Positions 2,142 through 8,949 of a stretch of 21,318 nt of DNA are shown here, one piece after another. Each line of letters starts with the position of its first letter. Position 1 is the stretch's first letter. Origin of the DNA: a virus (Duplodnaviria; Heunggongvirae; Uroviricota; Caudoviricetes); the IMG/VR virus record IMGVR_UViG_2660238462_000004, one strand, 5' to 3'. The translations under genes and the position numbers were made by a program. The notes below the pieces were generated by a model. That model was given only the letters and a program-made list of their open reading frames with translations. It was not told the origin of the DNA and ran no database searches.

Positions 2142-3224
2142 TTAGAACTGGTAAACCATACCTACAGCAACGATATCATCGGTAGCAACGCCAGATGCTT
2201 TCGTGAAATCGCTCTTATCAATCAGGTTGATTTTGTAATCAACAAAAGTGGACATATTTTTGTTGAAGTAATAGGTTGCACCTACATCAATATATTCAAC
2301 CAAGTCCTGATCACCCCACGCACCCAAGTCTTTTCCTTTAGATTGCAGGTAAGCAACGGACGGACGCAGACCGAAGTCGAACTGATATTGTGCAACTACT
2401 TCGAAGTTTTGTGCTTTGTTGGCAATATGGTTATTACCAAAAACAGTCATGTTCTGGGTTTCAGAATAGGTGGTAGCCAGATAGATGTTGTTCGCATCAT
2501 ATTTCAGACCAGCTGCCCATACTTCAGCATTTTGACCAGATGCATTCAGGCTGTTGTTACCGTAGATAACCTGATTATTAGTGCGGTCAGATTTAGCATA
2601 GGTTGCACCTACACCGAATCCTTCATACTCATAAGTAGTGGAGAAACCGAAACCATCACCATTAGCTTCAGTTACGTCAGTGCGGTCATTTTTACCCTGA
2701 TACTGAGCAGCAAAGTTCAGACCATCAACCAGACCAAAGAAGTCATTGTTACGATAAGTTGCAACACCTGTGGTGCGACCAGTCATGAATACATCTGTTT
2801 GGGTCCAGGTATCGCCACCGAATTCTGGCAGAACGTCGGTCCATGCACCAATATCGTATGCTACACCGTAGTTACGGCCATAATCGATGGAGCCGTAGTC
2901 ACCGAATTTCAGGCCAGCGAAGGCAAGACGGGTTTTATCTTTGGAGGAACCTTGAGATTCAGCGCGGTTGCCTTTGAATTCATATTCCCACTGACCGAAA
3001 CCAGTCAGTTGATCGTTGATTTGGGTTTCACCTTTGAAGCCAAGACGGGCATAAGTAGTATCACCATCATCTGCATCATTAGAGGAGAAGTAGTGCTTAG
3101 CATTAACTTTCCCGTACAGATCCAGCTTGTTACTGTCTTTATTATAAATTTCAGCTGCCTGAGCAGACATCGCCATCAGTACTGATGCAGCTACAGCAGA
3201 AATTGCCACTGTTAATTTTTTCAT
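2142..3224 (-). CDS. nmpC: Outer-membrane general porin, OmpC/OmpF family (NmpC/OmpD-like prophage porin)
   Basis: 360 aa from ATG at 3222-3224: signal peptide [23 protein letters not shown], then [23 protein letters not shown]..., C-terminal ...VAVGMVYQF (terminal Phe typical of beta-barrel OMPs). The six-frame ORF extends 20 codons further upstream but the signal peptide fixes the start. Confidence 0.9.
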
Positions 3225-3592
3225 CGTGAGCCCTTTTTTTGAACTATTATTAAAAAATGATGTCACTGCGCGATAAATATTCATCTAATCAATGTGATTA
3301 TTTCAAGATGTAAGTTTTGGTTTCTCATTTGATTTGTGAAGTAGATCTCTATTTTTATCTGAACTTTTTCTATCGAATCCTATTCATGGCTCTTGGCTGA
3401 ATAAAAATAAATCTATTAGCCAATTTATATTAATGGCTGTTATTTATAAGTGCTCTATAATTTGAAGATTCAATTTAAACCAGCTAAAAATAACGCTGGA
3501 AATTATTTGTTGGTTATTTGTTGAGATTTGCTTATGTATTTGTAGTGGTGTTTTCAATACTCGGTAGCATTCTCGCAAATATCATTTAGTGG

Positions 3593-4031: not shown

Positions 4032-4553
4032 ATGACTCAAAACTATGAACTGATTGTGAAAGGGATCCGCAATTTTGAGAATAAAGTTACGGTAACTTTA
4101 GCGTTACGGGACAAAAACCGCTTTGACGGTGAAATTTTTGACCTGGACATCTCGCTGGACCGTGTTGAAGGTGCCGCGCTGGAGTTTTATGAGGCAGCAG
4201 CCAGAAGGAGCATCAGACAGGTCTTCCTGGATGTTGCTGCCGGGTTATGTGAAGGGGATGAGCAGTCGCCGGAAAAGCGCCCCATAATTTTAGAGGCGCA
4301 GAATGTGTGGATAACCTACAAAGGAAAGCTACCGGGAAGAATTACTGGTTCTCTGAAGACGCCACCGACGGCATTGCGGTCAGAAAAAGATGATATTGAA
4401 TCGCCCATTGAAAAACTGGAGGGCAGCGTCGCTGATCTGAATAAAAAATTGTCGGTGCTGATTCCTTCTGAAGATGAAAAAAAACGCCGCGATGAGCAGT
4501 TTGCGGCGTTTTACGATTATTGCATTGAAGTTACTCTCGCAGGAATTTTGTGA
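4032..4553 (+). CDS. Hypothetical protein, N-terminal part YdfR/DUF1327-like, with a C-terminal extension
   Basis: ATG 4 nt after the holin stop; MTQNYELIVKGIRNFENKVTVTLALRDKNRFDGEIFDLDISLDRVEGAALEFYEAAARRSIRQVFL... resembles my recollection of prophage YdfR (about 100 aa), which sits between holin and endolysin in Qin. Here the frame runs to 173 aa with a Lys/Glu-rich tail. Confidence 0.5.
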   Translation: MTQNYELIVKGIRNFENKVTVTLALRDKNRFDGEIFDLDISLDRVEGAALEFYEAAARRSIRQVFLDVAAGLCEGDEQSPEKRPIILEAQNVWITYKGKLPGRITGSLKTPPTALRSEKDDIESPIEKLEGSVADLNKKLSVLIPSEDEKKRRDEQFAAFYDYCIEVTLAGIL

Positions 4554-4906: not shown

Positions 4907-5934
<1,028 letters not shown>

Positions 5935-6117: not shown

Positions 6118-6146
6118 TTGCTATGGTTGGTTAATCATGCGTTAAT
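6118..6146 (+). promoter_or_regulatory. Candidate cspA-like promoter driving a long 5' UTR
   Basis: ttgcta (6118-6123), 17-nt spacer, gttaat (6141-6146), in an AT-rich upstream region; predicted leader ~145 nt to the csp ATG, comparable to the cspA leader. Confidence 0.35.
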
Positions 6147-6297
6147 GGTGTTCTGGTTTGTTACAAAATTATCTGAAGCAGTCATTGTTATAATTTTATT
6201 ATTTGTACCTCTTGAGATTTCCTTGTTGGTTTTTCTCTCTGATATTTTTTTTCGGACCATTCTGCCCAAGGGCTAACTTCTTCAAAAGGTAATAATG

Positions 6298-6510
6298 ATG
6301 TCTAACAAAATGACTGGTTTAGTGAAATGGTTTAACCCTGAAAAAGGTTTTGGTTTCATCACGCCGAAAGATGGTAGCAAAGATGTGTTTGTCCATTTCT
6401 CAGCTATTCAGAGCAACGATTTCAAAACGTTAACTGAGAATCAGGAAGTCGAATTTGGTATTGAGAACGGACCTAAAGGCCCCGCGGCTGTTCATGTTGT
6501 GGCACTTTGA
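6298..6510 (+). CDS. cspI: Cold-shock protein, CspA family (CspI-like)
   Basis: 70 aa [70 protein letters not shown] with RNP1/RNP2-like motifs (KGFGFI, VFVHF); SD aagg 8 nt upstream. Confidence 0.9.
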
Positions 6511-6709
6511 GGTAGAAAATATTACAAACCATATTCACTTTAGATGCCCGTGTTGCCATGGTTCTCAGTATAGAACATCATCTTTTGATGTTTCTGACAG
6601 GAATCCTTTCGGGGCAAAATGTATCTTTTGTAAATCAATGATGATTACATTTGATAATATTTCACAATACTTAAATGTTAGCCGTCTATCGTTAGATTTA
6701 AGAAAGTGA
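6494..6709 (+). CDS. Small zinc-ribbon protein (YnfQ/YmcF-like) downstream of csp; start codon uncertain
   Basis: Frame encodes ...[57 protein letters not shown] with CxCC...CxxC. The first ATG (6494) lacks an SD and overlaps csp; a GAGG (6509-6512) lies 8 nt upstream of an in-frame ATT (6521), which would give a 62-aa product. Confidence 0.5.
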
Positions 6710-6714
6710 AAATG

Positions 6715-6737
6715 AAGGCTCCTTCGGGAGCTTTTTT
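6715..6737 (+). terminator. Intrinsic terminator after the csp/zinc-ribbon unit
   Basis: aaggctcc-ttcg-ggagc stem with UUCG tetraloop followed by tttttt, 6 nt after the stop at 6709. Confidence 0.6.
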
Positions 6738-6857
6738 GCTTAGTGTCTAGTCGATGGATACTCACATATTACGGTAACATTATGAAAAAAAATAATAGTT
6801 TTTTTTAACTCTGAACCAGCAATGGTAGTGCCAGTGATGACCGGAGTTAACACCATC

Positions 6858-7013
6858 ATGCGTGAATATCCAAATGGCGAAACAACACACCTCACTGTAA
6901 TGGCTGCAGGGTTTCCATCTCTGACCGGAGATCATAAAGTCATTTATGTAGCAGCGGATCGACATGTAACTTCAGAAGAAATTCTGGAAGCAGCAATGAG
7001 ACTCTTGAATTGA
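6858..7013 (+). CDS. ynfN: YnfN-like small protein (cold-shock-island protein)
   Basis: MREYPNGETTHLTVMAAGFPSLTGDHKVIYVAADRHVTSEEILEAAMRLLN (51 aa) matches my recollection of Qin ynfN and its position between csp and gns. In-frame ATGs at 6822 and 6837 are alternative starts. Confidence 0.45.
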   Translation: MREYPNGETTHLTVMAAGFPSLTGDHKVIYVAADRHVTSEEILEAAMRLLN

Positions 7014-7185
7014 TTTGATTCTAATGCATTGATAATAAATGATAATCATCTTTATCTGTTTGTGTGAAATTTAGACCGTCGTATGTTGATTATTGCGATG
7101 TTTCATCTTATCTTTTATACGTTTGCTCCATATAATTGACACTACTGTGTACCAGGAAAGTCATAACAGACTAAAAGAGGAAATG

Positions 7186-7359
7186 ATGAACATTGAAGAG
7201 TTAAAAACAAAAACAGAAGCAGATATTTCTGAATATATAACAAAAAAAATCATTGAGCTTAAGAAAAAGACCGGGAAAGAAGTTACCAGTATCCAGTTTA
7301 CTGCACGGGAAAAAATGACTGGTCTTGAAAGCTATGATATCAAGATTGATTTAATCTAG
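7186..7359 (+). CDS. gnsB: GnsA/GnsB-family protein
   Basis: 57 aa MNIEELKTKTEADISEYITKKIIELKKKTGKEVTSIQFTAREKMTGLESYDIKIDLI; strong SD aagagg 5 nt upstream; close to recalled GnsA/GnsB sequences. Confidence 0.75.
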   Translation: MNIEELKTKTEADISEYITKKIIELKKKTGKEVTSIQFTAREKMTGLESYDIKIDLI

Positions 7360-7424
7360 TCTGTTTAGTATTAGCATCAATTTCTCATCAGATGCTATTC
7401 AACAATACAAATTACCCATAAACC

Positions 7425-7455
7425 TCGTTTTTACGGGGTTTTGTTATATTTAAAC
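7425..7455 (+). terminator. Possible terminator hairpin downstream of the gns gene
   Basis: aaacctcg-ttttt-acggggttt stem-loop followed by T-rich sequence (coordinates approximate). Confidence 0.3.
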
Positions 7456-7652: not shown

Positions 7653-7859
7653 ATGCATAAAGATCAATACACTGATGCCCCCTCCCAGGAGCAGGTTCGT
7701 GTAAAAACTATGCTTAATAGCACCATTTCGATGGGTTACCCGGATGTTGTAATTGCATGTATAGAACATCAAGTGTCTCTGGAAGCATTCAGGGCAATTG
7801 AGGCCGCGTTAGTAAAGCACGATAAGAATACGAAGGATTATTCCCTGGTGGTTGACTGA
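7653..7859 (+). CDS. Hypothetical 68-aa protein upstream of the packaging genes (possibly YlcI/YnfO-like)
   Basis: ATG with SD ggag 7 nt upstream; [68 protein letters not shown]; not recognised with certainty. Confidence 0.4.
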
Positions 7860-8290: not shown

Positions 8291-8421
8291 ATTTATTGAT
8301 AATTAAAAGTTATTTCTCTTTTCAGCTGTACAATATTTTTTTCTCCCTGTCATTAGACTAGTTTGCAATTAATTGAAATATATAAATAAACCTGATTTTC
8401 ACCTGCCAGATGGAGTTGCTT

Positions 8422-8949
8422 ATGTCAAATGTGAGCGGGATCGGTGATGCTTATTACTGGAGTGTTTTTAAAATCGCCGAGGCCTTTGGGCTTCACTGGG
8501 ACACAGTAAAAAAACGGCTCCTCGCGGCCAACACTCCTGTGGCTGCGACTGTCAGGGGGAACCCCGTTTACGCCCTGCAGCATGTCGGGCCTGCCCTGTT
8601 TAGTGTGAAGCATGAGGCAGCAGACTCTGTTCATGATCCATCCCGTATGGAGCCGAAAGAGAGAAAGGACTGGTACCAGTCGGAAAATGAAAGGATCAAG
8701 CTGGAAAAGGAGCAGCGAAAACTCATCCCCGTTGATGAAGTAGTCATCGTCTATTCGTCCATGAGAAAGGCTGTCGTCCAGGTTCTGGAGACAATTCCGG
8801 ATGTTCTTGAACGCGATTGCGCCCTGACTCCTCAGGCCGTTGGCGTTGTACAGCAGGCCATTGATGACCTGCGATACACTCTTCAGGAAAAATCCTACGA
8901 GGCTTGTGCTGCTGAATTAATTCCTGATGAGGAAGGAGAGAGTCTCTAG
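8422..8949 (+). CDS. Terminase small subunit (putative DNA-recognition subunit)
   Basis: 175 aa ending 8 nt before the terminase large subunit; SD ggag 6 nt upstream of ATG 8422; N-terminal region plausibly helix-turn-helix; acidic C-terminus. Assigned mainly by position and size. Confidence 0.6.
   Translation: MSNVSGIGDAYYWSVFKIAEAFGLHWDTVKKRLLAANTPVAATVRGNPVYALQHVGPALFSVKHEAADSVHDPSRMEPKERKDWYQSENERIKLEKEQRKLIPVDEVVIVYSSMRKAVVQVLETIPDVLERDCALTPQAVGVVQQAIDDLRYTLQEKSYEACAAELIPDEEGESL

Follow-up and report, generated by a model that had tools for sequence, protein, structure and literature searches.

The ynfN and gnsB genes of a lambdoid Escherichia coli prophage probably lie in two separate units of a moron cassette

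We analysed a 21,318-nt stretch of DNA, hereafter called the window, which represents the late region of a lambdoid (Qin/mEp460-type) E. coli prophage. The gene order was lysozyme, Rz, a csp–gnsB cassette, DUF1441, terminase and portal. The lysozyme gene (4907-5440) and an Rz/DUF2514 gene (5437-5934) were located 5' of the cassette, and a DUF1441 gene (8410-8949) was located 3' of it, followed by genes for the terminase large subunit, the portal and the tail. The prophage around the cassette appears complete, since it contains genes for lysis, terminase, portal and tail. Upstream of the lysis genes, a porin gene was found on the opposite strand (2142-3284, minus strand; full-length match to Pfam Porin_1, E 4e-153). 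Porins are usual cargo genes of lambdoid prophages, as exemplified by nmpC and lc. A DUF1327 (YdfR-like) ORF of 173 aa at 4032-4553 matched its Pfam domain over residues 1-112 only, and its counterpart in L001 (E. coli CFSAN018748, a nearly identical genome annotated by PGAP) was flagged as a truncated pseudogene.

The segment 6200-7900 shared 99.9% identity with a large number of E. coli chromosomes and was matched in 2645 of 5426 complete genomes, and the annotation of those chromosomes places cspI, ynfQ/ymcF, ynfN and gnsB in it. The same cassette was detected in the free phages mEp460, 2H10, HannyBb, Tritos, PhiR63_1 and PhiR42_1. Across different E. coli genomes, insertions of IS1, IS2 and IS3-family elements were recurrent inside the 1.7-kb cassette. 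The first-pass annotation had reported two small ORFs 3' of csp and named them ynfN-like and gnsB-like. Both were confirmed at 6858-7013 (51 aa plus stop) and 7186-7359 (57 aa plus stop) on the plus strand, and both names were correct. Neither is a chance ORF, as shown by the Gns profile match of the second and the purifying selection acting on the YnfN family. They are catalogued E. coli prophage genes in a common prophage allele, already known and listed by name in the annotation of thousands of E. coli genomes; as such, they add little new biology. Further 3', a 68-aa ORF (7653-7859) belonged to PHROG 657 and matched no Pfam domain. L001 and phage mEp460 carry it at the corresponding position, where it is annotated as a hypothetical protein, and in three other E. 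coli-type loci a tblastn search placed it 3' of gnsB.

The closest well-known counterpart is the Qin prophage of K-12, where cspI-ynfQ-ynfR-ynfN-gnsB (b1552-b1550) have the same order, spacing and terminators as in the window, and where the cassette likewise lies between rzpQ and the packaging genes. Between the two, CspI was 100%, YnfQ 95%, YnfN 94% and GnsB 93% identical. Qin is a cryptic remnant, whereas the window prophage retains terminase, portal and tail genes. In mEp460, 2H10, HannyBb, PhiR63_1 and L001, the 76-aa YnfN frame and GnsB were 100% identical to those of the window, and the 1.7-kb DNA was 99.9% identical.

The first gene of the cassette is cspI (6298-6510, plus strand), encoding a 70-aa cold-shock protein (Pfam CSD, E 1.7e-31); this is the name given to the csp gene in the 99.9% identical E. 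coli genomes. Csp proteins are known to act as antiterminators. The gene is embedded in a cspA-type thermoregulator mRNA element comprising a long 5'UTR and coding region (6140-6556, plus strand; Rfam RF01766), which was matched over the full length of the model (positions 1-428) with 109.8 bits versus a gathering score of 78. It is followed by ynfQ (6521-6709, plus strand), encoding a 62-aa YmcF-like zinc-ribbon protein (Pfam PF23641, E 7e-33; also annotated by PGAP) that carries two CxxC pairs. According to PGAP and the K-12 annotation, ynfQ uses an ATT start codon 10 nt past the cspI stop, and K-12 ymcF does likewise.

A terminator hairpin follows ynfQ (stem-loop 6714-6731, U run to 6737, plus strand; -12.4 kcal/mol). 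It was kept in 15 out of 15 aligned loci, with a change on both sides in locus L019. Overlapping the hairpin is a ynfR-like small ORF of 12 aa (6712-6750, plus strand), which PGAP treats as a 'too short' pseudo-CDS. It is shortened by a TAG codon in the window; K-12 has TAT at that codon and a ynfR of 21 aa. The K-12 ynfR stop codon lies 4 nt 5' of the long-form ynfN start described below, which suggests translational coupling. K-12 YnfR-SPA was strongly upregulated after cold shock (PMC6001520) and, since YnfR is encoded across the hairpin, this implies that transcripts do pass it. In another study, K-12 cspI, ynfQ and ynfN were co-induced 6.5-, 5.9- and 5.8-fold, respectively, with matching SspA dependence (PMC11228462); that paper likewise states the antiterminator role of Csp proteins, and its main text does not mention gnsB.

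The start of ynfN had been placed at ATG 6822, 6837 or 6858, and this part of the first-pass annotation had to be revised. All three codons are internal to the family protein, whose conserved start corresponds to the ATG at 6782-6784 (plus strand). That ATG is in frame in L001, mEp460 and Citrobacter, and PGAP annotated an intact 76-aa ynfN beginning at the equivalent of 6782 in both L001 and mEp460. Direct comparison with the intact allele revealed one extra A in the homopolymer at 6785-6792 of the window, at codons 2-4 of ynfN (A8 vs A7), upstream of a T8 run at 6799-6806. This 1-nt insertion puts ATG 6782 out of frame and leaves the three downstream ATGs as internal codons. The ynfN frame itself is open from codon 2 to codon 76 plus stop (6786-7013, plus strand), with 100% tblastn identity over residues 2-76. 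Of the family protein, the 51-aa ORF encodes no more than the C-terminal two thirds.

We concluded that the real YnfN family protein is the 75-76-aa long form starting at the equivalent of ATG 6782, based on homologue N-termini, N-terminal dN/dS, profile clusters, predicted strands and PHROGs. In phage PHB10 and Enterobacter, a homologue with 64% identity has 75 aa, aligns from residue 1 (MKKVIIFFNGKP...) and carries Leu at the position of the E. coli internal Met26. Citrobacter orthologues are also 75 aa long and share the N-terminus MKK(I/V)IVFFN. Compared to Citrobacter, the first 25 codons had a dN/dS of 0.07-0.13, no different from the remaining codons, and synonymous sites were nearly saturated; for the family as a whole, dN/dS versus the Citrobacter orthologues was 0.06-0.15, indicating purifying selection. 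A profile HMM run against 1.8 billion representative proteins yielded 46 YnfN clusters, of which the full-length ones (approximately 70-107 aa) matched the profile from position 1. Nearly all of these full-length ones begin with one or two basic residues, a hydrophobic strand and FFN, typically MKKV[I/L]VFFN, and none of the 46 clusters was annotated. An AlphaFold2 model (pLDDT 82) predicted five strands and a C-terminal helix, of which the 51-aa form lacks two strands and most of the third. PHROGs contains two families for YnfN, 3425 (76 aa) and 4911 (51 aa), and the corrected 76-aa protein matched the former with E 1e-55. The window has no intact ORF starting with MKK(V/I)(I/L)VFFN; its ynfN is a member of the family by descent, disrupted by the insertion.

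The frequency of the frameshifts was assessed by exact-match megablast against complete E. coli genomes. For the window allele, 436 of 572 genomes contained the A7/T8 form and two contained A8/T8. For the K-12 allele, 1040 of 1571 genomes contained the intact T8 run and 416 the T7 run of K-12, with several K-12 laboratory derivatives among the top matches listed for the latter. Among 80 IMG/VR ynfN copies, 73 had A7 and five had A8; all of these copies were 99-100% identical, and the scan informs homopolymer statistics rather than diversity. YnfN length variants of 76, 63 and 51 aa were each encoded on at least 1000 contigs. Judging by these sequences, the 51-aa K-12 reference YnfN is a frameshift remnant of the 76-aa protein. 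The mEp460-type phages and L001 combine A7 with an intact 76-aa ynfN, whereas the window has one A more. K-12 Qin has A7 and T7 (a -1 frameshift) where the window has A8 (a +1 frameshift) and T8, so ynfN was broken independently in the two. The rare A8 frameshift of the window may be real or may be a homopolymer sequencing error. If real, the gene would produce at most N-terminally shortened fragments of 63, 58 or 51 aa. Of the five beta-strands predicted, these would lack two or three.

The second small gene, gnsB (7186-7359), belongs to the GnsA/GnsB family. Its product matched Pfam PF08178 (GnsAB_toxin) over profile positions 1-54 of 54 (E 2e-33, 114.5 bits, cut-off 27) and PHROG 2301 (E 2e-39). 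The search for similarity to the Gns family was positive, with 93% identity to K-12 GnsB and 65% to K-12 GnsA, alongside the full-length domain match. Compared to the PDB entries for GnsA (4xo1/4xo2), residues 1-56 matched 4xo2_A with E 8e-20, a similarity at the level of sequence only. The crystal fold of GnsA is reportedly a helical-hairpin homodimer (Wei et al. 2015). An alignment of Gns proteins contained 30 invariant columns, including the C-terminal block F.AREKM.GLESYD.KI, which is present in the window GnsB. A homopolymer run of A8 also occurs within gnsB (7242-7249). The IMG/VR copies L032 (A7) and L067 (A9) were frameshifted at that run, and protein P0188 had an apparent in-frame gain of two Lys at the same site. 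Homopolymer instability or sequencing error thus touches both ynfN and gnsB.

Taken together, the indels could be read as signs of decaying cargo, with ynfN a pseudogene and gnsB a silent remnant. The frameshift in ynfN and the truncation of ynfR to 12 aa in the window agree with such decay, as do the gnsB homopolymer indels in L032 and L067 and the frequent IS insertions in the 1.7-kb stretch. We nevertheless consider it highly improbable: the window gnsB is intact and its product 100% identical to that of viable phages, both the ynfN and gns families are under strong purifying selection, the surrounding prophage appears complete from lysis to tail genes, and the A8 run in ynfN is possibly a sequencing error.

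The spacer between ynfN and gnsB is 172 nt long (7014-7185, plus strand), with a leader/promoter region at approximately 7085-7185. The last ~100 nt before gns were conserved in the 12-15 loci that were aligned, with or without ynfN and including gnsA loci. In a 15-locus alignment from ymcF to gns, ynfN appeared as a block that only some of the loci contain. As the gns leader is kept independently of ynfN, we infer that gns has its own upstream control region. At the other end, an intrinsic terminator follows gnsB (7420-7450, plus strand; terminator scan; hairpin of -11 kcal/mol with a U-rich tail) and is conserved in K-12 Qin. Each of the two units proposed below ends in a hairpin and U run.

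The elements within the leader were less distinct. A consensus promoter scan returned six promoter-like sites versus 7.4 expected by chance; it singled out no sigma-70 promoter for gnsB, and no antisense promoter stood out above chance. A perfect TATAAT at 7131-7136 and two registers in the conserved leader are promoter candidates by eye only, and the TATAAT is not conserved in Citrobacter. The gns leader of the window folded no better than shuffled sequences (z -1.0). A conserved RNA fold was considered and rejected, as RNAalifold on 12 loci gave three pairs at -1.07 kcal/mol and no covariation; an apparent compensatory change (CTGG..CCAG vs CTGT..ACAG) was not upheld.

Several resources describe Gns proteins as toxins. 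The pair ymcE-gnsA is listed as a toxin-antitoxin (TA) pair in reviews and models (PMC8484670, PMC6265476), and the literature referred to in the first-pass annotation, where this pair was said to have been proposed as antitoxin and toxin, does exist. Prediction tools also list ymcE-gnsA or GnsAB as TA systems, Pfam describes PF08178 as 'toxin of bacterial toxin-antitoxin system', and PGAP names gnsB 'addiction module toxin'. The proposal that ynfN-gnsB is paralogous to ymcE-gnsA held for the gns half. It failed for the other half: BLASTP of YnfN versus YmcE gave no alignment at E <= 100, and a tblastn search with YmcE found no match in ynfN-type loci. The K-12 cspG-ymcF-ymcE-gnsA locus and the window share homologous csp, ymcF-like gene, terminator hairpin, gns leader and gns in the same order; the K-12 locus has no ynfN, and its ymcE, which overlaps both neighbours (26 nt with ymcF, 11 nt with gnsA), is dissimilar to YnfN.

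The behaviour of ymcE itself is also atypical for a protein gene. In E. coli K-12 (L002:2848-3078), it extends over both the ymcF terminator and the conserved leader of gnsA. When K-12 was compared with L021, L022, L025 and L026, the ymcE ATG was found to be lost in four Escherichia lineages, and a stop codon or frameshift was found in two; start or frame loss affects E. albertii, E. sp. E1V33, MOD1-EC7003 and one E. coli strain. The dN/dS of ymcE was 0.84-1.4 versus 0.02-0.12 for cspG, ymcF and gnsA, and its dS was unusually low, 0.07-0.10 versus 0.29-0.63 for the flanking genes. Start and frame loss, high dN/dS and low dS fit a stretch of constrained non-coding DNA, the gnsA leader, better described as such than as a protein gene. 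The 'toxin/addiction module' label of Gns rests on ymcE, whose behaviour is not that of a conserved gene; extending the label to ynfN-gnsB is not warranted.

The genomic partners of both genes were surveyed in 25 gns loci from GTDB species representatives, with one genome per species. A csp gene and a ymcF-like gene were located upstream of gns in all 25, the ymcF-like gene directly 5' of every locus surveyed. ynfN was present in the prophage gnsB-type loci and most Citrobacter loci; it was absent from all gnsA loci and from the Citrobacter loci L017 and L019. Homologues of ynfN without gns nearby were found directly after csp in the PHB10/Enterobacter, P0131 and P0114 contexts. As far as gene neighbourhoods can tell, the constant partner of ynfN and of gns is the upstream csp, and not each other. 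In the IMG/VR locus L046, an IS element is inserted between the two genes, approximately 10 nt past the ynfN stop. A frameshifted ynfN stands beside an intact gnsB both in the K-12 allele (exact match in 416 genomes) and in the window, with the caveat that a 51-aa fragment might still be made.

ynfN and gnsB have remained neighbours across Escherichia and in about ten species of Citrobacter, which makes some functional link between them possible. Among the Citrobacter loci L011-L020, an Rz-like gene precedes the csp-ymcF-ynfN-gns cassette in some species (L011, L013 and L015), while the others (L012, L014 and L016-L020) have no lysis gene within 3 kb of it; the cassette may therefore occupy more than one genomic context in this genus.

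These observations bear on the idea that YnfN as antitoxin and GnsB as toxin form an addiction or stress module like the one proposed for YmcE-GnsA. Like type II TA operons such as relBE and yefM-yoeB, the window carries two small same-strand neighbours on a mobile element, and in many genomes of Escherichia and Citrobacter they have stayed together. Together with the toxin names in Pfam and PGAP and the TA listings in reviews and prediction tools, this speaks for a module; the main toxin-like point is that overexpressed gnsA or gnsB lowers ATP and raises persister counts (10.1101/310961). Unlike relBE and yefM-yoeB, the pair does not form one tight operon with an overlap or a few nucleotides between genes but is separated by 172 nt, with a gns leader conserved independently of ynfN. 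The two families do not co-occur as obligate partners, each being found without the other, and the IS element in L046 splits them. An antitoxin should not be lost beside an intact toxin, and the putative antitoxin is dispensable in K-12, where, as in the window, ynfN is frameshifted and gnsB intact. YnfN had no Pfam, NCBIfam or PADLOC match and no fold match, and no antitoxin-type or DNA-binding domain or fold was recognised in it. It is unrelated to YmcE, and ymcE itself lacks a coding-gene signature. Finally, plasmid-borne gnsA and gnsB rescue growth instead of stopping it (10.1101/2024.03.27.586906, PMC10607373). The possible TA-like role suggested for the pair in the first-pass annotation is not supported, and we regard such a module as very unlikely. 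A role in anti-phage defence was also considered and rejected: PADLOC returned no match for YnfN, GnsB, YnfQ or the 68-aa ORF, and Csp alone matched, to a CSD model.

The published phenotypes of Gns are mostly beneficial, and its lipid effects are overexpression phenotypes. The effect of Gns proteins on lipid unsaturation, as noted in the first-pass annotation, agrees with the literature as later papers cite it: unsaturated fatty acids increase when gnsA or gnsB is overexpressed (Sugai 2001, cited in 10.1101/2024.03.27.586906 and PMC10607373), and the same papers cite multicopy suppression of secG-null and fabA6(Ts) by K-12 gnsA/gnsB. The plasmids pCA-gnsA and pCA-gnsB rescued cold-sensitive growth and increased 16:1 and 18:1 fatty acids (10.1101/2024.03.27.586906), and gnsA suppresses lapC190 (PMC10607373). 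In a single preprint, pBAD overexpression of gnsA/gnsB decreased ATP and increased persister counts, gnsA and gnsB were co-induced in late growth at entry to the persister-rich phase, and the 13 genes upregulated at both persister stages included gnsA and gnsB and neither cspI nor ynfN (10.1101/310961).

The persister data raise the alternative that GnsB is a stand-alone modulator of growth or persistence, toxin-like when abundant and held back by its own leader. Control would then be transcriptional, translational or through a small RNA, with no protein partner, and ynfN would be an unrelated neighbour. The nucleotide conservation of the leader before all gns genes, including the low dS in the gnsA locus (0.07-0.10 vs 0.29-0.63), is consistent with such control, and so are the co-induction of gnsA and gnsB at entry to the persister-rich phase and the rise in persisters and fall in ATP upon overexpression (10.1101/310961). 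The leader showed neither conserved secondary structure nor an antisense promoter above chance, and the persister results stem from one preprint and strong overexpression, whereas growth was rescued in other studies. On balance, we find this alternative rather unlikely.

A more speculative scenario gives the homopolymers a function. The 76-aa YnfN would be a cold-shock protein of new fold that acts with its always-adjacent Csp and restrains GnsB, and the A and T runs in codons 2-8, which are prone to slippage, would serve as a heritable on/off switch. Switching ynfN off, as in K-12 (T7) and the window (A8), would then release GnsB-driven membrane remodelling or persistence, and ynfN-gnsB would represent a prophage-borne regulator-effector pair that is phase-variable and not organised as an operon. 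We give this scenario very little credence.

Based on the gene identities, layout, distribution and selection established here, the region is probably a moron cassette between Rz and the terminase that consists of two separate units rather than one TA operon. The first unit would comprise cspI with its cspA-type mRNA, ynfQ, a leaky terminator overlapped by ynfR, and ynfN. It would be induced by cold and by other stresses that raise csp mRNAs, and ynfN would be reached by cold-induced read-through of the hairpin. Its product would be a beta-rich protein of 75-76 aa with the upstream csp as genomic partner. The second unit would consist of gnsB with its own upstream region of ~100 nt and its own terminator. 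GnsB would modulate membrane lipids, as its 93%-identical K-12 orthologue does when overproduced. The co-induction of gnsA and gnsB in late growth fits their shared leader. As a whole, the cassette would be cargo for lysogenic conversion that benefits the host at low temperature, and its most likely role is that of cold-inducible prophage cargo.

The lipid phenotype of Gns was already published in 2001, and the value added here is one of curation: a corrected ynfN gene model, the finding that YnfN and YmcE are not homologous, the evidence that the 'toxin' name is weakly founded, and the csp-centred linkage. As K-12 YnfN is a frameshift remnant, experiments on the K-12 ynfN allele may probe a broken gene. 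The conserved association of csp with ynfN, and of csp-ymcF with gns, directs functional study of these genes away from TA biology and towards the cold-shock physiology of lysogens.
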